A DNA stretch of 64,000 bases from Candidatus Brocadia pituitae (GTDB lineage: Bacteria; Planctomycetota; Brocadiia; Brocadiales; Brocadiaceae), in the NCBI GenBank assembly GCA_017347445.1, contig AP021856.1:750613-814612 (forward strand), written 5' to 3'. This document shows positions 39,972-48,751 of the stretch, piece after piece (within the stretch, counting starts at the first letter, position 1; each line of letters opens with the position of its first letter). The position numbers were made by a program, and so were the translations under genes. The notes under the pieces were generated by a model. The model did not search any database, was not told the DNA's origin, and worked only from the letters and a program-made list of their open reading frames with translations.

Positions 39972-40574
39972 TCAGGTTTCCTTCCAGTCAATTACTTGGG
40001 GGACTTTTGAAGGTGGGGTATAACGGATAAGCTCTGCCAGGAGTTTCTCAGGGTCGTTTGATGTTATAATCAATCGACGATGCTTAGTCTGGATGAAACG
40101 TTCCTGCAATACGTGGTGTACAAAGGCCAGCAGCAAATCATAATAACCTTCTACATTCAGCAACCCAATGGGCTTGGTATGAATGCCCAACTGCGCCCAG
40201 GTGAGTATTTCGAAGAGCTCATCAAATGTGCCAAAGCCGCCAGGCATTGCAATAAAGGCGTCGGACAACTCTGCCATCATGGTTTTTCGCTCATGCATGC
40301 TCGATACCATCCGGAGTTCTGTCAGGCCGGTGTGGGCAAACTCTTTCGAGGCGAGGGCATGAGGAATTACGCCAATAACGTTTCCCTTTTCCCGTAAGAC
40401 GGCGTCTGCAATGTCTCCCATGAGACCAATGCTCCCCCCGCCGTAGACAAGTCCGATTCCCTGTGAGACCAACGATTTGCCAAGTTGCCGGGCGGTGGCT
40501 GAATACACAGACCGTGAGCCGCGCTTAGATCCGCAAAACACACAGATGCGTTTAATGGAATGAGTCTCACTCAT
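39972..40574 (-). CDS. LOG family (TIGR00730-type) nucleotide phosphoribohydrolase
   Basis: ICVFCGS, LVYGGGSIGLMG, MHERK, PGGFGTFDELFE. Confidence 0.95.
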   Translation of the reverse strand: MSETHSIKRICVFCGSKRGSRSVYSATARQLGKSLVSQGIGLVYGGGSIGLMGDIADAVLREKGNVIGVIPHALASKEFAHTGLTELRMVSSMHERKTMMAELSDAFIAMPGGFGTFDELFEILTWAQLGIHTKPIGLLNVEGYYDLLLAFVHHVLQERFIQTKHRRLIITSNDPEKLLAELIRYTPPSKVPQVIDWKET

Positions 40575-40768: not shown

Positions 40769-41515
40769 TTAAAAACATTTTTGCTGAATTTTGTGCTTAA
40801 TAATTTCCATCTTTAAGTGGGCAATGGAGCCGCTCGGATTCAGGTCCTTCGGACAAACCTCCTGGCAGTTGAAAACCGTATGGCAGCGCCACACACCATG
40901 TTCGTCGTTTACCATTTCCAGACGCTCTTCCCGTGCGCCATCCCTGGTGTCAGACACGAAGCGATCCGCTGCAAGAAAAGCCATAGGGCCAAGGTATTTT
41001 TCGTGCGATGCCGTGATGGGACACGACGAATGACAGCAGGCACAGAGGATGCAATCGATCAGGATGTCCACTTTTGCCCTTTCATCGGGACTCTGCAACC
41101 GTTCCCCGCTTGCGGGAAATGGTTTGCCGGGCATCAGGTACGGCTTCATTTGTTCATACTTTTCCCAAAACAATTTCATGTCAACCACAAGGTCTTTTAC
41201 AATCGGCATATGGGCAAGGGGGCGAATGGTAATATGCCTTGTTTTGAGTTTCAGAACCGGGGTATTACAGGCAAGGCGATACTTTCCGTTAATATGCATG
41301 GCACAGGAACCGCAGATAGCCGCCCGGCATGAAGACCGAAACGCAAGAGAATCATCCAATCGCTGCTGGATATAGTAAAGCCCCTCCAGAACGGTCAGGT
41401 CTTTCCGGAGAAAAGGGACTTCAAATTCCTGAAAGGACGGTTCCTTGTCTTGATCCGGATGAAACCGGAAAATTTTGAACAACACCGTTTCTTTTTTTTG
41501 CATGCGATTACTCAA
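40769..41515 (-). CDS. sdhB: Succinate dehydrogenase/fumarate reductase iron-sulfur subunit
   Basis: SCRAAICGSC...C, CILCACCHSSC, CHTVFNCQEVCP. Confidence 0.95.
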   Translation of the reverse strand: MSNRMQKKETVLFKIFRFHPDQDKEPSFQEFEVPFLRKDLTVLEGLYYIQQRLDDSLAFRSSCRAAICGSCAMHINGKYRLACNTPVLKLKTRHITIRPLAHMPIVKDLVVDMKLFWEKYEQMKPYLMPGKPFPASGERLQSPDERAKVDILIDCILCACCHSSCPITASHEKYLGPMAFLAADRFVSDTRDGAREERLEMVNDEHGVWRCHTVFNCQEVCPKDLNPSGSIAHLKMEIIKHKIQQKCF

Positions 41516-42848
41516 ACAAGGCGTTTACAAAGGCGTCGGGGTCAAATTTTTCTATATCATCCGCTTTTTCACCGAGTCCGACATATTTCACAGGGATGTT
41601 TATTTCATTCCGCATCCCCAGCACAAAACCGCCTTTTGCCGTGCCGTCCAGCTTTGCCAGGAATATCCCGGTAACGTCCACTGCCTGCTTAAACGTCTTT
41701 GCCTGGGAAAGGGCATTTTGCCCTGTGGTGGCATCGAGCACCATAAGCACCTCGTGAGGGGCGCCGGGAATCCTTTTGGAAATAACCCGTTTCATCTTGC
41801 CCAGCTCGTTCATGAGGTTTTCATGGGTATGGAGCCGTCCCGCCGTATCGATAATTACCACATCGATGCCTCTTGCGATGCTTGCCTCCAGGGCATCGTA
41901 TGCCACAGCAGCCGGATCAGAACCGGTTTGATGTTTTACAATATCCGCCCCGATGCGTTTACTCCAGATGTCAAGTTGTTCCACTGCAGCCGCCCGAAAG
42001 GTATCGCTTGCAGCGACCATGACCTTTTTGCCATCCCGAATAAAGGTGTTTGCAAGTTTTGCGATGGCCGTTGTCTTGCCCACGCCGTTTACCCCTACAA
42101 CCATAATGACCGTTGGGAGAGCTGAGGAGTAATTGATGCCGGTTTGAAGAGACCGCAAGCTTTCTTTGAGTTTGTCTTTAATAAAATCATGTATCTGAGA
42201 GGTTTCCGTTATTGTCTTTGCTTTCCATGCCTCACGTAACTCGTCCACCAATTTTTGAACGGACTTTGCGCCAATGTCTGCTCCAATCAGGATGTCCTCT
42301 AATTCTTCAAGGACGGATTCATCGATCTTTTTTCTGAAGGAAAAGAGGCCTTTTAAACGGGACCAGAAACGGATACGGGTTTTCTCCAGACCCCTTTTGA
42401 GCTTTTCTGTTGTTACGGGAATTTCTTCTCTTATTACAACCGGCTCTTCACCCAGGACGATCTCCGGCAACGGAGCAACCAATTCTTCGGGAGTCAGCAA
42501 GGTCTGGCTTTCCGCTTCACCTTTGTCAATCGGCGCTTCTACAACAACTGCGGTCAATTCTTCCGTGGTTGCGGAGATATCCTTTTCGGCAACCGCGGTT
42601 TCTTCCTCTGTCGTAATGAGTACCAGCCTTATCGTGTCACCTTCCACCATGACCTTTTTTGGCGGCTCAAAGGTAAACGTCTTGAACCTGGTCCAGAAAC
42701 TACGCCGGGGTTTTCCTGAATCATTCCTCTGTTTTTGCAAGGAATCCGGCGATTGCTTTTCTCTGATTCCCTGCGTAATAATCGTTTTTGGTGTTTCTCT
42801 CTTTTTATCTCCAGCGGTATTTTTTTCGTTTTGTGATGGGCGTTCCAT
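41508..42848 (-). CDS. ftsY: Signal recognition particle receptor
   Basis: Acidic N-terminal domain, GVNGVGKTT, DTFRAAA, DTAGR, TKLD-like AKLDGTAKGG. Confidence 0.97.
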   Translation of the reverse strand: MERPSQNEKNTAGDKKRETPKTIITQGIREKQSPDSLQKQRNDSGKPRRSFWTRFKTFTFEPPKKVMVEGDTIRLVLITTEEETAVAEKDISATTEELTAVVVEAPIDKGEAESQTLLTPEELVAPLPEIVLGEEPVVIREEIPVTTEKLKRGLEKTRIRFWSRLKGLFSFRKKIDESVLEELEDILIGADIGAKSVQKLVDELREAWKAKTITETSQIHDFIKDKLKESLRSLQTGINYSSALPTVIMVVGVNGVGKTTAIAKLANTFIRDGKKVMVAASDTFRAAAVEQLDIWSKRIGADIVKHQTGSDPAAVAYDALEASIARGIDVVIIDTAGRLHTHENLMNELGKMKRVISKRIPGAPHEVLMVLDATTGQNALSQAKTFKQAVDVTGIFLAKLDGTAKGGFVLGMRNEINIPVKYVGLGEKADDIEKFDPDAFVNALFE

Positions 42849-42872: not shown

Positions 42873-44156
42873 TTAGCGGGAAGGGCATCTTTGTTTCAGT
42901 TTGTCAACGAGGTCGCCTGGTATGGTGACTTTGGCAATGGGGCAGTCCAGCCTTCTTTCACCGTGAAAATCCGAGCCACCGGTTACTGCAAGATTATACT
43001 TCTTTGCAAGCTTCAGGTACTTTTTGACAGCTTGCGGGGTATGCGTAGGATAATATACCTCGATCCCCTGTAATCCGCATTTTACCAAATCTTCGATAAT
43101 ATGGTCTCTCTGCGTGAGTCCCGGATGGGCCAGCGCCGCCACACCCCCCGCATCTCTGATCAGTTCAATGGCCTGTTGTGACGTCAAGGTTTTTTTAGGA
43201 ACATATGCTGGCTTATTATCTCCTATGTATTTTGAAAATGATTCTAAAATCGTATCGCAATAACCGCGCTTCCAGAGTATTTCCGCCACATGCATGCGCC
43301 CCGGTGATCCTTGGCCGGCAAGGGTAAAGATTTCCTGCGCATCAACATCAACGTGGAGCGTATGCAACTTGTCAACCATGTCGTGAATACGATTCACACG
43401 ATCATTGCGGGATTGTTGTATCATTTGTTGCAAAGATATATTATTCACATCGATAAAATATCCCAGGATATGGACCTCAGAGGGGCTGAGGTATGACGAA
43501 AATTCTATACCCGGTATAATATGGATATTTTTGCCCTGCCCGTAGCGGCAGGCAATAACGAGCCCGTCAACGGTATCATGATCCGTAATCGCAATTGTAG
43601 AGACGCCGCAGCGGAGGGCGTCATCGACAACTTCCTCCGGTGTCATGGTGCCATCTGAATAGGTGGTATGGATATGGAGGTCTGCATCTCCGTAATGAAT
43701 CTCTGGCGCGTCCTGAAGCGCAGTCTGGCAGGTATTCCCATTCAAATTTCCATTTCCAAATTGGGAGTAAATTTTATCTAAAATCCCGTTCACAAATGTT
43801 CCGGAGTTTTTTGTGCTGAATTTTTTGGCTAATTCTATGGCCTCGTTAATCGATACCTTGGGGGGAATATCGTTTCGATACAATAGTTCGTAAACTCCCA
43901 AACGGAGGATATTTTTATCGATAATGGCCATGCGTCGCAATTCCCAATGTTCCGTGATTCCCGATATCTTTTCATCGATTTCTTTCATGTGTACCCGGCA
44001 ACCGTTGGTAAGCGCTATGGCGAACTGATACACGTCGGGGTTTTTCGTGCTTTTCTTGCAGAAACTCTCTATATCATTAAGGATTTCATCCCCACGCAGA
44101 TCAAGCTGATAAAGGGCTTGAAGGGCAAGCTCGCGGGCAATTGTTCTGTTGCGCAT
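42873..44156 (-). CDS. nusB: NusB fused to a PHP (TrpH/YciV-like) phosphoesterase domain
   Basis: Residues 1-135 are NusB (ARELALQALYQ, INEAIELAKKFST, FVNGILD). C-terminal domain has HIHTTYSDG, ITDHD, GIEFS, HILGY, GRMH, AHPG, GGSDFHG. No stop between the two. Confidence 0.93.
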   Translation of the reverse strand: MRNRTIARELALQALYQLDLRGDEILNDIESFCKKSTKNPDVYQFAIALTNGCRVHMKEIDEKISGITEHWELRRMAIIDKNILRLGVYELLYRNDIPPKVSINEAIELAKKFSTKNSGTFVNGILDKIYSQFGNGNLNGNTCQTALQDAPEIHYGDADLHIHTTYSDGTMTPEEVVDDALRCGVSTIAITDHDTVDGLVIACRYGQGKNIHIIPGIEFSSYLSPSEVHILGYFIDVNNISLQQMIQQSRNDRVNRIHDMVDKLHTLHVDVDAQEIFTLAGQGSPGRMHVAEILWKRGYCDTILESFSKYIGDNKPAYVPKKTLTSQQAIELIRDAGGVAALAHPGLTQRDHIIEDLVKCGLQGIEVYYPTHTPQAVKKYLKLAKKYNLAVTGGSDFHGERRLDCPIAKVTIPGDLVDKLKQRCPSR

Positions 44157-44238: not shown

Positions 44239-44730
44239 TCATTTTTCTGCTGCTGTTACGCCGGTTTGTATCTGATCAATGAGATTTGCCATTTCTATCG
44301 CCGATAAGGCAGCTTCTGCCCCTTTATTTCCTGTCTTTGCGCCAGCGCGGTTAATGGCCTGTTCCAGGGTTTCTGTCGTTATGACGCCATAAATGGTTGG
44401 CACGCCGGTAGATATTCCCACGTGTGCAATACCCTTCGCGGATTCATTTGCGACATAATCAAAATGAGGAGTTTCTCCGCGAAGAATGGCTCCCAAACAA
44501 ATCAATGCATGATACTTACGTGTCTCTGCTGCCTTCAGTGCCGCAATGGGTATTTCACATGCGCCCGGTACCCAAAAAATATCAATATCTTTCTCATGTA
44601 CGCCATGCCTGACAAGCCCATCAAGTGCACCATCCAGCAAACGCCGGGTGATAAAGTTATTGTAACGGCTAATAATGATCCCAAAAACCTTTCCCGCACC
44701 AAGTAAATTCCCCTGAAATTCCTTAACCAT
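44239..44730 (-). CDS. ribH: 6,7-dimethyl-8-ribityllumazine synthase
   Basis: [38 protein letters not shown]; conserved ribH-nusB synteny. Confidence 0.97.
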
Positions 44731-45016: not shown

Positions 45017-46363
45017 GTGGAAGAAGCGAAGCCAGAAGACACAGTGTCTGAAATTGAAGGCTTAAGAATGCCGTTGGGAGCGCATCTTGAAGAGTTACGG
45101 AGACGGGTCGTATATTCTCTTATCTCAATTGTTCTCTGTTTTATCTTGTGCTGGTTTTTTAAAGTCCAGATACTGGATATGGCCAAAAGACCTCATAAAT
45201 TTGCCATGGAAAAGGTAGGCCTTTCAACAGAATTGCAGGTGCTGAGCTACCAGGAGGGCTTCTATGCGTATATGAAATTGTGCTTCATAACGTCGGTTTT
45301 TTTGGCCTATCCCTTTGTGATATACCAGATATGGCAATTTGTCAGCGCCGGCCTTTATAAAAAAGAGCAAAGGTACGTGCTATTGTTCCTCCCTGTCTCA
45401 TATGCAGCATTTGTGGTTGGCGGACTCTTTGGGTATTTTTTACTCATTCCCTTTGGTCTGCAATTTTTAATCGGCATCCTTGGTCCCGGTATTCAACCTA
45501 TCATCACGATGAAGGACTACGTCTCCTTCGTTTTCATGCTCACGGTTGCACTAGGTTTGGTGTTTCAGTTGCCGCTTGTTATGCTGCTTCTTTCGAAGAT
45601 CAGATTCATCACCCCTGATAAATTTATTGCATGGAGAAAGTACGCCATTCTGGTAATTTTTATTATTGCCGCTATTGTCACGCCGCCCGACCCTTTTACC
45701 CAGTCGATGACCGCTATTCCTATGATTGTCCTCTATGAGCTGGGAATACTCATCGCACGGCCCACAAAGAAGGGATTTTTCCTTTTAGGCACCATCGTTG
45801 GAGGGGGGATTCTGCTGTTGTTAATGTTTTATTTTTATTTTACCCACAAGGGAGGCGAAGTCAATCTGCTAGACACCCGGGGAGAGGTTCAATTTTTGCA
45901 TCCTGAAGGGCAGGAATGGGAAAAGGTGGCAAACCATACCCGTTTCCGGAACGGCGTTACCCTGAAAACCGGCAGTGAAGGGATGACCGCTCTCTCTACC
46001 AGAAAGGGTATTGATATAGGTATGGATGCAAATACCGAAGTGCATATTGTTGATTCTTTGAAGTTAAGGATGAAATCAGGCCAGATCCTCATTTCGGTAA
46101 AGGGGTTAAAAACACCACTGGAAATTGATACGCCAAATGGGCGGATTAGGACCGAACGGGGAACGTTAAATATTGTGGCAAAGGATTTTATTACCATTGT
46201 AACTGCGGTGAAGGGTGATGCCGTTCTGGTCACAGAGGGTGAAGAAAAAAAGTTACTGGAAGGACGTCAGCATAAGATGTCCATTGGCGGTGAGCCCGTT
46301 GACATTGGTGCTATTATTAATTGGTCTGAAGGCGTGATCAACAAATCAGCGGGTGGAGAATAA
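45017..46363 (+). CDS. tatC: TatC with an extra TM and a C-terminal FecR-like domain
   Basis: MPLGAHLEELRRR, YQIWQFVSAGLYKKE, FQLP, TPPDPFTQ, LYELGI; then a 7th TM and a FecR-like beta domain (LKTG...GQILISV...LEIDTPNG...TIVTAVKG). Confidence 0.93.
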   Translation: MEEAKPEDTVSEIEGLRMPLGAHLEELRRRVVYSLISIVLCFILCWFFKVQILDMAKRPHKFAMEKVGLSTELQVLSYQEGFYAYMKLCFITSVFLAYPFVIYQIWQFVSAGLYKKEQRYVLLFLPVSYAAFVVGGLFGYFLLIPFGLQFLIGILGPGIQPIITMKDYVSFVFMLTVALGLVFQLPLVMLLLSKIRFITPDKFIAWRKYAILVIFIIAAIVTPPDPFTQSMTAIPMIVLYELGILIARPTKKGFFLLGTIVGGGILLLLMFYFYFTHKGGEVNLLDTRGEVQFLHPEGQEWEKVANHTRFRNGVTLKTGSEGMTALSTRKGIDIGMDANTEVHIVDSLKLRMKSGQILISVKGLKTPLEIDTPNGRIRTERGTLNIVAKDFITIVTAVKGDAVLVTEGEEKKLLEGRQHKMSIGGEPVDIGAIINWSEGVINKSAGGE

Positions 46364-46789: not shown

Positions 46790-48751
46790 ATGAATACTAT
46801 TTTCTCCTGCGTCTTCCGTACGAAGGACCATCTGTGCCGCATACTGCCCCTATTTTTATTCAGTCTCTCTGCCTTTGTGTCCCCTCTCCTTGCGGTATCA
46901 AACGATACGGAACCTGGCGTACATTTTGTTCGTGGCATTTTGCCCTCCCGGCAATATTTTGAAAACCATGAGATCCAGCGCTATGCTGTTGTGATTGGCA
47001 TATCGGATTATAAGGATCCGGGGATAGCCGATCTGGAATATGCGGACGCTGATGCCCAGGTATTTTATGATTTTCTTACCAGCCCGGCCGGTGGTGATTT
47101 CAAGAAAGAACACGTCTTGCTCCTGAAGAATGAGCAGGCAACCCTGAAAAACGTCACCCTTGCCATTACCAATTTTCTTAAAAAGACAAATGACCCTGAT
47201 TTTGTCGTCATCTTCATGGCATGTCATGGCGAGCCGGAACCTGACCGCCCCGGCAATCTCTATTTACTCATGCACGATTCTGAGCCCGGCAGCTTGTCTG
47301 CAACTGCTTATCACATGGAAGATGTCAATGCTGACATGAAACGATACATTTCGGCAAAGAGGCTTGTTTTATTTGCAGATGCCTGCCACAGTTCGGGGCT
47401 TGGCGAAGGTATCATGAATACCCGGGGAAGCACAAATACGATTCCTGCAGCGCTTTCCACACTCAAATCAACGAGGGAGGGATGGGGAATTGTAAGTGCA
47501 AGCAGGGCAAGGGAAGTTTCAAGGGAGTCACATCAGTTTGGTGGCGGTCATGGGGTATTTACTCACTACCTGCTGGAAGGTTTACAAGGAAAAGCCGATG
47601 CGGAAGGAAACAAAAATGGGATCGTTACCCTTACGGAGGCATTCGATTTTGTGGCTGAAAATGTGAAAAAGGCAACGCACAACGCACAGCATCCTGACCT
47701 ATCAGGAAATTTCGACAATAACCTTCCCCTGGGATTTCCCGGAGTAGAAACCGGCACCAAAGGAACTGCCCAAAAGACAGCTATGCCACCCTTAGGCGTT
47801 CTGAAAATTCATGGCATGCCCGAAGGGTCACGGGTATATATAAAAGGAAAAGAGGTCGGCGTCACCCCTCTGGACCTAAAACTCATGAGCGGGACATATC
47901 CTGTTAAGATAAAAACGAGAGGCCATCCCGATGTGTCGGAGACGGTATTTGTTAATCCCGATGAATTGACGGAGATCTGTGCTGAGCAACTCTTTGAGCG
48001 ATTCTATTTTGGGGCGGAATCCGGCACCTCCAGCGGCACCCATCTGGCCTATGCCGGGTCGGGCGGATACGCGCCGGATTACCTGGAATCGGATGATAAA
48101 ACGCATGATGTTGCACCAGCAAAAGCTATGTCCCCTGGCAGCGCTCCGACACCACAGGCAGAAACGGTGCACAAGCAGGCAGATTTGCAGAAAACAAAGG
48201 AAAACATCGATACACTCATAAAAGAACTAGAGATCATGGCAGAGAAACAAACCAGGGGAGAAAAACCCATGCCTGCTAAAAAACCGGGAGAAAAGAGACA
48301 TGAAACCGCAGACGTTCCACACTGCGTCCCTATATCTCTTAAGGAATTTAATGTAAAAATGGGCGCGTTATCAAACAGACATACCACGGAATTGCTCCGG
48401 CAAAGGATTATTGACGCCCTCTTGTCCCAAAACGGCTTACATGTGATGGAAAGGGATTTGGAATTGCAGGAGGCGATTTTACGGGAACAAAGGCTCGGTG
48501 GCTCTATGCTTGCCGATGAGCTGTATAGAATTGAGCTGGGAAAGATACAGGGAGCCCAATTCCTCTGTTTTGGAGAAGTATATCCGGGAAAAACGCCCGA
48601 TCAGCACATAGTAAGAATAGAATTGGTTGACACGGCAACAACGCTTATCGATACGCTTGAATGCGCCTTTCGGAGTGAAGAAGATCCGGGGGCCGTGGCA
48701 CGTGATATCGCCGCAAAGATGAAGGCAAAGATTGTCGCAAAAAGAAAATGA
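46790..48751 (+). CDS. Secreted caspase-like (C14, clan CD) peptidase + PEGA + CsgG-like domain
   Basis: Signal peptide; YAVVIGISDY, FMACHG (His), FADACHS (Cys); PEGA-like GSRVYIKGKEVGVTP; C-terminal VMERDLELQEAILREQRL...RIELVDTAT. Confidence 0.9.
   Translation: MNTIFSCVFRTKDHLCRILPLFLFSLSAFVSPLLAVSNDTEPGVHFVRGILPSRQYFENHEIQRYAVVIGISDYKDPGIADLEYADADAQVFYDFLTSPAGGDFKKEHVLLLKNEQATLKNVTLAITNFLKKTNDPDFVVIFMACHGEPEPDRPGNLYLLMHDSEPGSLSATAYHMEDVNADMKRYISAKRLVLFADACHSSGLGEGIMNTRGSTNTIPAALSTLKSTREGWGIVSASRAREVSRESHQFGGGHGVFTHYLLEGLQGKADAEGNKNGIVTLTEAFDFVAENVKKATHNAQHPDLSGNFDNNLPLGFPGVETGTKGTAQKTAMPPLGVLKIHGMPEGSRVYIKGKEVGVTPLDLKLMSGTYPVKIKTRGHPDVSETVFVNPDELTEICAEQLFERFYFGAESGTSSGTHLAYAGSGGYAPDYLESDDKTHDVAPAKAMSPGSAPTPQAETVHKQADLQKTKENIDTLIKELEIMAEKQTRGEKPMPAKKPGEKRHETADVPHCVPISLKEFNVKMGALSNRHTTELLRQRIIDALLSQNGLHVMERDLELQEAILREQRLGGSMLADELYRIELGKIQGAQFLCFGEVYPGKTPDQHIVRIELVDTATTLIDTLECAFRSEEDPGAVARDIAAKMKAKIVAKRK

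Follow-up and report, generated by a model that had tools for sequence, protein, structure and literature searches.

How bacteria coordinate the transcription of rRNA with its processing is an open question, and one on which the gene fusion described here bears. An antitermination complex nucleated by NusB, NusE, and BoxA loops the rRNA leader onto RNA polymerase and raises cleavage by RNase III (bioRxiv 10.64898/2026.03.17.712431). In NusB, Y18 of the E. coli protein (EcY18) forms part of the NusE interface and F122 stacks on U8 of BoxA; BoxA is bound along helix alpha7, the C-terminal one, and its nucleotide 1 lies close to the C-terminus of the protein (PMC3177189). The E. coli complex also needs SuhB, a protein with an inositol monophosphatase (small-molecule-phosphatase) fold that is recruited non-covalently via NusA and others, binds last, and locks the complex. 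Maturation of rRNA 5' ends in E. coli involves RNase AM (YciV/TrpH), which trims 16S, 23S, and 5S rRNA and works late, on ribosomal particles, after 3'-end maturation (PMC7261194). RNase AM belongs to the TrpH/YciV/Cv1693 family of PHP phosphoesterases, together with the 3',5'-nucleoside bisphosphate phosphatase Cv1693 of Chromobacterium violaceum. Members of this family grip the 5'-phosphate of a nucleotide and hydrolyse the phosphoester on its 3' side, a chemistry that corresponds to 5'-to-3' nucleotide removal from 5'-monophosphorylated RNA or to the conversion of pAp to AMP and Pi, and their best in vitro substrates are pAp and short 5'-phosphorylated oligonucleotides. Fusions of RNase III with RNase AM in some deltaproteobacteria provide an independent Rosetta-stone link between the PHP family and an rRNA-processing factor (PMC7261194), although the partner there is an endonuclease whereas the partner in the fusion described below is a transcription factor. 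RsmB/Sun, the 16S rRNA m5C967 methyltransferase, offers an earlier example, albeit by analogy only, of a NusB-fold domain linked covalently to an enzyme that acts on rRNA. The NusB-like domain of RsmB is a diverged RNA-binding module rather than a housekeeping NusB, and its attached enzyme is a methyltransferase. Our literature search found no paper that connects NusB with PHP, TrpH, or YciV or that describes their fusion.

We analyzed a stretch of 64,000 nucleotides from Candidatus Brocadia pituitae (hereafter, the window). It encodes a single-chain NusB-PHP protein on the minus strand, flanked by ribH and ftsY, with the following features:

44239..44730, minus strand: ribH (lumazine synthase), upstream in the same transcription unit (Pfam DMRL_synthase, E 1.2e-53)
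42873..44156, minus strand: nusB::PHP fusion gene, 427 codons plus stop (ORF list, Pfam, NCBIfam)
43758..44156, minus strand: NusB domain, residues 1-133, seven helices (TIGR01951, Foldseek)
43686..43757, minus strand: flexible linker, residues 134-157 (AF2, alignment of relatives)
42951..43685, minus strand: TrpH/YciV-type PHP phosphoesterase domain, residues 158-402 (NCBIfam, PDB matches)
43224..43439, minus strand: helical insertion lobe of the PHP domain with the putative 5'-phosphate pocket, residues ~240-311 (aligned residues)
42873..42950, minus strand: C-terminal tail, residues 403-427, and stop codon (alignment, AF2)
41508..42848, minus strand: ftsY (SRP receptor), downstream (Pfam SRP54 and SRP54_N)

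The fusion gene comprises one uninterrupted ORF of 427 amino acids, with an ATG start and a TAA-type stop at 42873-42875, in which Pfam places NusB at residues 6-130 (E 1e-36) and PHP from residue 159 onward (E 1.5e-12). It is transcribed and its reading frame is intact: contigs from four RNA-type runs traverse the linker with substitutions only and zero indels, and the frame is kept despite dense SNPs in the linker of metatranscriptome contigs. The first-pass annotation of this DNA had proposed a NusB joined to a PHP domain in one chain, and the NusB part indeed scores above its NCBIfam cut-off and the PHP part above its Pfam threshold. Collectively, the curated thresholds, the matches to solved structures, and the RNA contigs place the two-domain architecture far above chance.

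Residues 1-133 scored 138.8 bits against TIGR01951 (NCBIfam; cut-off 88.35) and 126.7 bits against PF01029 (threshold 23.1). Residues 2-133 were modeled by AF2 as helical with high pLDDT, and Foldseek aligned the model with the NusB structure 3r2c_B at a TM of 0.89 and an rmsd of 1.8 Å. Across 60 fused proteins, Y16 (= EcY18), F121 (= F122), and the acidic residue D80 (= AaE81) do not vary. The domain therefore shares with canonical NusB of E. coli and A. aeolicus (3D3B, 3R2C) its fold, the tyrosine of the NusE interface, the phenylalanine that stacks on BoxA, and a position after ribH, but it differs from them in a 295-residue C-terminal extension (linker and enzyme) that begins right after the BoxA-binding helix. 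Judged by sequence and predicted fold, the N-terminal part is a bona fide NusB, and it presumably serves as NusB within the fusion. Models of RsmB matched residues 7-132 only, and weakly (51.8 bits versus a cut-off of 319); with scores this far below the cut-off and no methyltransferase domain in the protein, an RsmB-type fusion was rejected.

The PHP domain scored 48.6 bits against PF02811 (threshold 26.4), and its PDB matches were 9etk, 3e0f, 7ug9, and 2yb1, with TM values of 0.81-0.85 to RNase AM and Cv1693 structures (Foldseek). As the first-pass annotation had stated, it retains the full set of metal ligands. These nine residues (H161, H163, D168, H193, E218, H229, H344, D396, and H398) show no variation across the family and align in the same order with H7/H9/D14/H39/E64/H75/H191/D248/H250 of Cv1693 and with H13/H15/D20/H45/E72/H83/H198/D255/H257 of E. 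coli RNase AM. The arginines of the 5'-phosphate pocket, R253, R256, and R287 (Ec R107/R110/R141), the stacking residue F307 (Ec F161), and H289 (Cv H136) are each conserved at 97% or more in the fused, nusB-adjacent, and solo groups. The roles of pocket and active-site residues were established by work on E. coli RNase AM and Cv1693 (PMC9410882). These observations suggest that the PHP domain is catalytically competent and predict a trinuclear-metal phosphoesterase.

Comparison with individual family members nevertheless sets the domain apart. It adopts the same fold as RNase AM of E. coli (7UG9) and V. cholerae (9ETK; TM 0.81-0.82) and shares with it the nine ligands of the trinuclear site, the three pocket arginines, and the stacking phenylalanine, but identity is only 32% to 7ug9 and 34% to 9etk, and yciV is a stand-alone gene whereas the PHP domain in the window is fused to nusB. 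Fold and active site are likewise those of Cv1693 (2YB1; TM 0.83), to which identity is 31% and which is without a NusB association. In addition, the position of Ec R201 (Cv R194), an arginine that in E. coli contacts a mimic of the scissile phosphate, is occupied by Leu347 in the window and by L, V, I, or T across the clade of fused and nusB-adjacent homologs. The best NCBIfam match was NF041577 (3',5'-nucleoside bisphosphate phosphatase) at 179.8 bits versus an equivalog cut-off of 400, followed by NF047791 (RNase RNM) at 178.1 bits versus a cut-off of 375; membership in either equivalog was thus rejected. The low identity, the sub-cut-off scores, and the substitution of R201 by leucine indicate that the domain is not an RNase AM ortholog. 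We assign it to the TrpH/YciV/Cv1693 family, within which specificity for RNA versus pAp is not readable from sequence. A neighbor-joining tree of 140 PHP domains supported a monophyletic main clade of fused Brocadiales homologs, with a second fused clade (L005, P0121-P0124) as its neighbor and one further fusion (P0125) placed separately; the backbone was star-like and left the PVC clade unplaced relative to the proteobacterial RNase AM/Cv1693 clade.

The linker that separates the two domains had been estimated at about 20 residues; a linker is present, but it spans residues 134-157 and is closer to 25. Residues 136-151 have a pLDDT below 50, and among 60 relatives the linker ranges from 20 to 57 residues (median 25) with no conservation of sequence and no conserved internal start codon from which a separate PHP protein could be made. 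It departs from NusB where the BoxA-binding helix alpha7 ends, beside the position of BoxA nucleotide 1. The AF2 model of the whole protein consists of two confident domains and a disordered linker (pTM 0.64), and it predicts no fixed interface between NusB and PHP.

The first-pass annotation had raised the possibility that a stop codon was lost in this genome only. Instead, the 120 best homologs (50-98% identity) are all fused, with both domains strongly conserved, and they span Brocadia, Jettenia, Kuenenia, Scalindua, Hypogeohydataceae, and Tripitaka. A divergent fused cluster (P0121) is labelled Candidatus Brocadiia, and strong purifying selection acts on both domains. The fusion is thus conserved throughout the class Brocadiia (anammox bacteria and relatives). 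It is nevertheless rare, with about seven fused clusters among 1.84 billion representatives. At least one more NusB-PHP fusion, P0125, is of apparently independent origin.

Outside the Brocadiia, the same two genes are neighbors. In all 75 of the non-Brocadiia PVC-group loci returned, from genomes of Omnitrophota, Verrucomicrobiota, other Planctomycetota, and Auribacterota, nusB comes first and is followed on its own strand by a separate, abutting PHP gene. The distance between the stop codon of nusB and the PHP core has a median of 14 nt and is at most 5 nt in 28 of these loci. The pair often sits within ribH-nusB-PHP-ftsY, and a Chlamydiota MAG (L082) encodes separate genes in the order ribBA-ribH-nusB-PHP-ftsY. 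Because a separate, abutting pair occurs across the PVC group, the Brocadiia fusion represents the hardening of an older gene pair. Both the adjacency across the PVC group and its later hardening into a fusion are new here. Beyond the PVC group, close relatives of the PHP domain had no nusB linkage in the contexts that were looked up, and the same PHP subfamily adjoins rny-ymdB-spoVS, an RNA-processing neighborhood, in genomes of the Clostridia type.

In the window, ribH lies 82 nt upstream of the fusion gene and ftsY begins 24 nt past its stop, a junction that is bridged by contigs from the RNA runs. Among 80 related loci, ribH is directly upstream of nusB in 47 and ftsY is downstream in 20, in addition to the Chlamydiota locus. 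A terminator scan found no terminator-like site on the minus strand within ribH-nusB::PHP-ftsY, and counts from the promoter and terminator scans of the window as a whole were at chance level. The pair ribH-nusB is itself conserved, although we know of no functional link between the two genes, and adjacency alone is therefore weak evidence of shared function. The same applies to the neighborhood as a whole, since the operon also carries the functionally unrelated ribH and ftsY. The window does not include an rRNA operon, and its Rfam matches comprise one c-di-GMP-I riboswitch only. A window scan for the BoxA-like sequence TGCTCTTTAACAA with up to three mismatches returned 36 matches, where 27.5 ± 5.5 would be expected, and no match ahead of ribH or nusB was convincing.

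We propose that the fusion is a bifunctional protein in which the PHP domain acts on 5'-monophosphorylated pre-rRNA ends near the antitermination complex, a reading to which we assign a probability of roughly 0.45. The NusB part would be the ordinary NusB of the organism, binding BoxA of nascent pre-rRNA together with NusE (S10) and nucleating the rRNA antitermination complex on RNA polymerase. The PHP part would either remove nucleotides in the 5'-to-3' direction from 5'-monophosphorylated RNA or convert pAp to AMP and Pi. The disordered tether of about 25 residues starts where the BoxA-binding helix finishes and could therefore hold the putative nuclease within a few nanometers of the BoxA-bound leader. 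That leader is kept in a loop on the polymerase by the antitermination complex, which would bring the nuclease close to the 5' region of the pre-rRNA as well. Its most likely job would be to act on 5'-monophosphorylated ends that endonucleases generate near the complex, whether in the final 5' trimming of pre-rRNA or in disposal of the BoxA leader after its excision, which would free NusB and NusE for reuse. The fused gene would have originated when abutting or overlapping nusB and PHP genes were joined in an ancestor of the Brocadiia. Given the substrates that the family prefers in vitro, activity on long pre-rRNA is an assumption of this model.

The first-pass annotation had likewise read the fusion as coupling antitermination to rRNA 5'-end maturation. 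The conserved fusion, the abutting separate pair, the catalytic and 5'-phosphate residues shared with RNase AM, and the exit of the linker near BoxA nucleotide 1 favor that reading, and the abutting pair makes its Rosetta-stone argument stronger than the fusion by itself had suggested; the PHP domain, however, is not an ortholog of YciV, and the late action of E. coli RNase AM on ribosomal particles argues against a simple co-transcriptional model. The data suggest, without proving, that an RNA 5'-end trimming enzyme has been attached to the rRNA transcription machinery in Brocadiia. A broader version, in which a 5'-to-3' exoribonuclease whose gene adjoins nusB, and is fused to it in Brocadiia, trims pre-rRNA 5' ends or removes the BoxA leader as a resident subunit of the antitermination complex of PVC bacteria, is tentative and on balance doubtful.

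The strongest alternative is that the two domains are not functionally coupled, and that a housekeeping pAp phosphatase or general nanoRNase encoded within ribH-nusB-X-ftsY became joined to NusB when a small mutation fused overlapping genes, harmlessly and with the parts still working independently. That the bisphosphate phosphatase model is the best NCBIfam match (its name is used in some JGI annotations), that pAp is the best in vitro substrate of the family, and that the operon mixes unrelated functions all fit this explanation, as do the ease with which overlapping genes can fuse by accident, the disordered linker and lack of a predicted interdomain interface in the AF2 model, and the unrelated neighbors of close PHP relatives in other phyla. 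It accounts poorly, however, for an abutting pair kept in fixed order across five PVC-group phyla and a fusion kept class-wide, for at least one more apparently independent NusB-PHP fusion (P0125), and for the independent ties of the PHP family to RNA processing, namely rRNA trimming in E. coli, the RNase III fusions, and the rny neighborhood. We consider an uncoupled fusion rather unlikely. The coupling might instead be architectural, with the PHP domain recruited via NusB as a structural antitermination subunit in PVC bacteria and catalysis secondary. SuhB, which is integral to the rrnTAC and stabilizes it, offers the parallel of a phosphatase-fold protein attached to Nus factors, and tight linkage to nusB is consistent with such a role. 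The pAp phosphatases include both CysQ, a paralog of SuhB, and the non-homologous PHP enzymes of the Cv1693 type. Yet the parallel is purely one of analogy; the folds of SuhB and PHP are unrelated, and AF2 did not predict a fixed NusB-PHP interface. All catalytic and substrate-binding residues of the PHP domain are strictly conserved, although SuhB keeps its active site too. An architectural role appears improbable.

Less likely still is a tethered nuclease that degrades or processes mRNA leaders bound by NusB and NusE at BoxA sites outside rRNA. NusB and NusE do recognize BoxA elements of mRNA leaders, with repression of the genes concerned, and such regulation has been documented for suhB, a ParE-like toxin, and ribH-nusB of pseudomonads. 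The scan of the window found no BoxA-like element above chance, including upstream of ribH, and the 5'-triphosphates of primary transcripts do not fit a pocket for 5'-monophosphates. We consider this explanation very improbable. An artifact of assembly or sequencing, or a pseudogene-like read-through confined to one genome, can be dismissed with near certainty and was rejected, since the architecture is shared by over 120 independent clusters that come from a variety of assemblies and sources, the RNA contigs are free of indels, and the gene is under purifying selection.

A conserved pair in Planctomycetota, Verrucomicrobiota, Chlamydiota, Omnitrophota, and Auribacterota, combined with the fusion in Brocadiia, yields a candidate exonuclease partner of the antitermination complex and a testable prediction, namely BoxA-targeted, 5'-phosphate-dependent trimming. 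The fusion is a good experimental lead, and the proposed mechanism is only partly supported. If a resident exoribonuclease were confirmed, bacteria would possess a hard-wired coupling of transcription and exonucleolytic processing, unlike the late, particle-based step carried out by RNase AM in E. coli. If coupling is absent, the locus would serve as a caution that operon neighbors that overlap and fuse need not share a function. In either case, annotation is affected: fused proteins are currently named either ‘NusB’ alone or ‘PHP/phosphoesterase’ alone, and the PVC PHP clade falls outside both NCBIfam equivalogs.

Two minor observations concern the ends of the domains. The C-terminal tail is moderately conserved inside the Brocadiia, with a helix predicted by AF2 at residues 414-421. 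Position 117 of NusB is an asparagine, as in the E. coli nusB101 (D118N) mutant, and this position is variable within the family.

The nusB::PHP fusion of Candidatus Brocadia pituitae lies between ribH and ftsY on the minus strand, and a terminator scan revealed no minus-strand terminator-like sites between the three genes:

44239..44730, minus strand: ribH, upstream of nusB::PHP across an 82-nt gap
42873..44156, minus strand: nusB::PHP fusion, a single ORF of 427 codons with an ATG start
41508..42848, minus strand: ftsY, downstream of nusB::PHP across a 24-nt gap

In the fusion product, Pfam matched NusB at residues 6-130 (E = 1e-36), with a PHP match starting at residue 159. The N-terminal part scored 138.8 bits with NCBIfam, passing the NusB equivalog cut-off of 88.35 (TIGR01951), and together these matches bear out the full NusB domain reported in the first-pass annotation. 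The linker described there is present, but comprises about 25 rather than about 20 aa. Contigs of four RNA-type sequencing runs covered the whole fusion gene, its linker, and the ftsY junction; within the ORF they differed by substitutions only, and indels were reported solely outside it. Seven listed variant sites, none of them an indel, fell within the 31 nt of the linker-coding window 43707..43737 (contigs of metatranscriptome runs X3 and X12), which fits relaxed constraint on linker sequence with the reading frame kept.

Both Pfam domains were identified in all of the 120 best matches among 5.8 billion proteins (422-472 aa, 50-98% identity), whose named sources comprised Brocadia, Jettenia, Kuenenia, Scalindua, Hypogeohydataceae, and Tripitaka. 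The fusion is thus kept across Brocadiia lineages in these matches, and a stop codon lost only here, set beforehand as grounds for rejecting the proposal, is excluded. Set against the RNA contigs and these homologs, the reading of the fusion as an artefact has next to no probability. In alignments of 16 and 60 fused members, the NusB and PHP domains were strongly conserved, the linker differed in sequence and ranged from 20 to 57 aa (median 25), and no internal start codon within it was conserved. When 1.84 billion representatives at 50% identity were searched exhaustively with a profile, about seven fused clusters were recovered in all: two from Brocadiales, four divergent ones (P0121-P0124, the first labeled ‘Candidatus Brocadiia bacterium’), and P0125; custom NusB and PHP HMMs confirmed both domains in P0121-P0125. 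Matches ranked below these were essentially all stand-alone PHP proteins of about 280 aa. The nusB::PHP architecture is rare and specific to one lineage, the class Brocadiia; P0125 possibly represents one further independent fusion event. The same search returned another fusion of the PHP subfamily (P0237, 474 aa), in which a TrpH-type PHP domain forms the N-terminal part and a whole shikimate kinase (SKI) domain follows.

When one genome per GTDB species was scanned, 80 loci gave a tblastn match over nearly the whole query, and these were checked by stop-to-stop ORFs and domain HMMs. Single ORFs were identified at only five of the 80 loci (L001, L002, L003, L005, and L077), all Brocadiia-type, and the other 75 encoded the two as separate genes on one strand, nusB preceding PHP. 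By label, the non-fused loci comprised 35 Omnitrophota (including L048, ‘Candidatus Undivivens industriae’, a genus placed there by NCBI), 23 Verrucomicrobiota, 16 Planctomycetia or Planctomycetales, one Auribacterota, and one further bacterium. Across the 75 unfused loci, the first PHP catalytic-core residue lay a median of 14 nt from the stop codon of nusB (≤5 nt in 28 loci and ≤60 nt in 61), which indicates that the two genes abut or overlap. Spacing from the NusB domain end to the PHP core was similar in unfused (median 49 nt) and fused (39-84 nt) loci. Directly upstream, ribH was identified in 47 of the 80 loci; ftsY was downstream in 20.

Since the 80 loci were chosen via NusB motifs, a second approach was made from the PHP side, in which a stand-alone-PHP profile retrieved close relatives from many phyla and their genomic context was looked up. 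A Chlamydiota MAG (L082, JBHPGS010000005.1) had the gene order ribBA-ribH-nusB-PHP-ftsY-ribD-ribE; here nusB, PHP, and ftsY break up an otherwise coherent and complete rib cluster. The look-ups revealed no linkage of PHP to nusB in Halobacteroides, a Latescibacteria contig, or a Cloacimonadota-like contig. At three Clostridia-type loci, L084 (Thermoanaerobacterium), L086, and L087 (Contubernalis), the closest stand-alone PHP relatives were encoded one or two genes after ymdB-spoVS, which is preceded in L084 by rny (RNase Y). This is a second conserved RNA-metabolism neighborhood for the PHP subfamily. L086 (JBLNDG010000089.1) is labeled Caulobacteraceae and has the order HD/ymdB/spoVS-PHP-aminotransferase-ADSL, as in Thermoanaerobacterium L084; its taxonomic label or binning looks doubtful.

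The PVC group by definition includes Verrucomicrobiota and Chlamydiota, and the NCBI taxonomy also places Planctomycetota, Omnitrophota, and Auribacterota within it. The presence of the pair in all five phyla makes it a PVC-group trait. The abutting pair is the ancestral state, which Brocadiia turned into one polypeptide, and a small mutation is enough for the step from overlapping genes to fusion. We assign this architecture and its ancestry a probability of about 0.9.

An AF2 model (mean pLDDT 88.5) placed helices across residues 2-133 and, superposed on the A. aeolicus NusB of the NusB-NusE-BoxA complex, gave a TM of 0.89 and an rmsd of 1.8 Å. Three residues were invariant in the fused-family alignment: Y16, equivalent to E. 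coli Y18, a residue altered in nusB5 that lies buried where NusB meets NusE (PMC3177189); F121, equivalent to F122, which stacks on BoxA U8 (PMC3177189); and D80, equivalent to A. aeolicus E81. The fold match, the invariant residues, and the place after ribH identify the N-terminal domain as what is predicted to be an ordinary NusB. At the E. coli D118 position, the product has Asn (N117; window 43806..43808, minus strand), as in the nusB101 (D118N) mutant with higher affinity for lambda BoxA (PMC3177189); the fused family has N, D, Y, or K.

The PHP model matched V. cholerae RNase AM (9etk), B. adolescentis BAD_1165 (3e0f), Cv1693 (2yb1), and E. coli RNase AM (7ug9) with target-normalised TM of 0.81-0.85. 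Residue roles were taken from the E. coli structure (PMC9410882) and columns compared one by one. All nine metal ligands were conserved, as the first-pass annotation had claimed, along with the buried 5′-phosphate pocket arginines R253, R256, and R287 (E. coli R107, R110, and R141) and the stacking F307 (F161); these were at least 94% conserved in fused, divergent fused, nusB-adjacent, and solo groups. E. coli R201 (Cv1693 R194), which salt-bridges a sulfate mimicking the scissile phosphate (PMC9410882), is replaced by Leu347, and by Leu, Val, Ile, or Thr across the PVC clade. Identity was 31-34% to characterised enzymes versus 42-43% to nusB-adjacent PHPs, and residues 158-402 scored well below the NCBIfam equivalog cut-offs for 3′,5′-nucleoside bisphosphate phosphatase (179.8 versus 400 bits) and RNase RNM (178.1 versus 375). 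The domain belongs to the TrpH/YciV/Cv1693 family and, going by conserved residues, is probably catalytically intact; it is an orthologue of neither the RNase RNM nor the bisphosphate phosphatase equivalog. The likeness to YciV drawn in the first-pass annotation thus holds for family and active site but not for orthology.

Low pLDDT (<50) at residues 136-151 and a pTM of 0.64 in spite of two confident domains are what a flexible tether lacking a fixed NusB-PHP interface is expected to give. The BoxA site runs along the C-terminal helix α7 of NusB (NusB-NusE-BoxA structure and E. coli NMR mapping), and I134 and K139, at the very C-terminus, are perturbed when BoxA nucleotide 1 is changed (PMC3177189). 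The linker would therefore emerge from NusB next to the 5′ end of the BoxA bound there, and the nuclease may thereby reach RNA 5′ of BoxA and whatever the antitermination complex holds nearby.

Enzymes of the TrpH/YciV/Cv1693 family are established to bind a 5′-phosphorylated nucleotide and hydrolyse its 3′ phosphoester (PMC9410882), with 5′-to-3′ exonuclease activity on short 5′-P RNA or DNA, high activity on pAp, and diribonuclease activity. In E. coli, RNase AM takes off the final three precursor nucleotides of 16S, 23S, and 5S rRNA (PMC7261194). NusB, NusE, and BoxA nucleate the rRNA antitermination complex, with the leader kept looped onto RNAP and co-transcriptional RNase III cleavage raised (bioRxiv 10.64898/2026.03.17.712431). 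Combined, this chemistry and this role make a NusB-tethered exonuclease the best explanation: dependent on a 5′-monophosphate, it would act on pre-rRNA ends made near the antitermination complex, in final 5′ trimming or in clearance of the excised BoxA leader. An RNA-processing link of PHP is supported by the PVC-wide gene pair, the retention of the fusion throughout Brocadiia, the rny neighborhood in Clostridia-type genomes, and the fusions of RNase III with RNase AM that Jain noted (PMC7261194). Functional coupling of the fusion to pre-rRNA is nonetheless tentative, and we place it slightly short of an even chance.

Several observations count against the co-transcriptional delivery proposed in the first-pass annotation. 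Because primary transcripts are 5′-triphosphorylated, they would first have to be processed by an endonuclease or a pyrophosphohydrolase. The difference of the PVC clade at the R201 position also counts against it, and the operon neighbors ribH and ftsY make plain that a gene next to nusB need not share its function. The family's preference for pAp and very short substrates is a further objection; it would suit a housekeeping pAp phosphatase or nanoRNase, unrelated to NusB and fused by accident, which we consider unlikely given the class-wide fusion. SuhB, a phosphatase-fold subunit of the E. coli antitermination complex, is a near precedent for an architectural role of PHP, and is not the same thing as nusB::PHP; with the active site conserved, such a role is improbable. 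We give very little weight to action of the tethered nuclease at mRNA BoxA sites. Regarding the preferred NusB-tethered exonuclease, E. coli RNase AM acts late, on ribosomal particles, after 3′ maturation (PMC7261194), timing that argues against the simplest co-transcriptional form of what is a conjectural mechanism.

NusB and PHP are both well-known families, and the fused proteins are already in databases as ‘NusB’, ‘PHP domain-containing protein’, or ‘metal-dependent phosphoesterase’. A search of the available literature found no paper linking NusB with PHP, TrpH, or YciV, or on the fusion or gene pair. RsmB, with a NusB-like domain and an rRNA methyltransferase, and the RNase III-RNase AM fusions are near precedents, and neither is the same thing as nusB::PHP. 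The fusion is unlikely to astonish a specialist, but offers a concrete, testable handle on a possible coupling of rRNA transcription and 5′ processing in large, poorly studied bacterial groups.

Other genes nearby in the window were also examined. On its downstream side, ftsY is followed by genes for an SdhB/FrdB-type Fe-S subunit with Fer2_3 and 4Fe-4S domains (40769..41515, minus strand), with an sdhB-like gene after ftsY also in L001 and L077, and a LOG-family (Lysine_decarbox/SLOG) protein (39972..40574, minus strand). Divergent from ribH, a 448-aa protein (45017..46363, plus strand) has a full TatC domain (23-235), extended at the C-terminus by about 200 aa that match FecR-like sequence at a borderline level; the same gene adjoins ribH in Brocadiia loci L001-L003 too. 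The sole Rfam gathering-level match in the window was a c-di-GMP-I riboswitch (RF01051, 46619..46733, plus strand; 37.5 bits versus a GA of 35). About 55 nt downstream, an ORF of 653 aa (46790..48751, plus strand) encodes caspase (Peptidase_C14) and PEGA domains; together these would be a c-di-GMP-controlled caspase-like protease, an unusual pairing.
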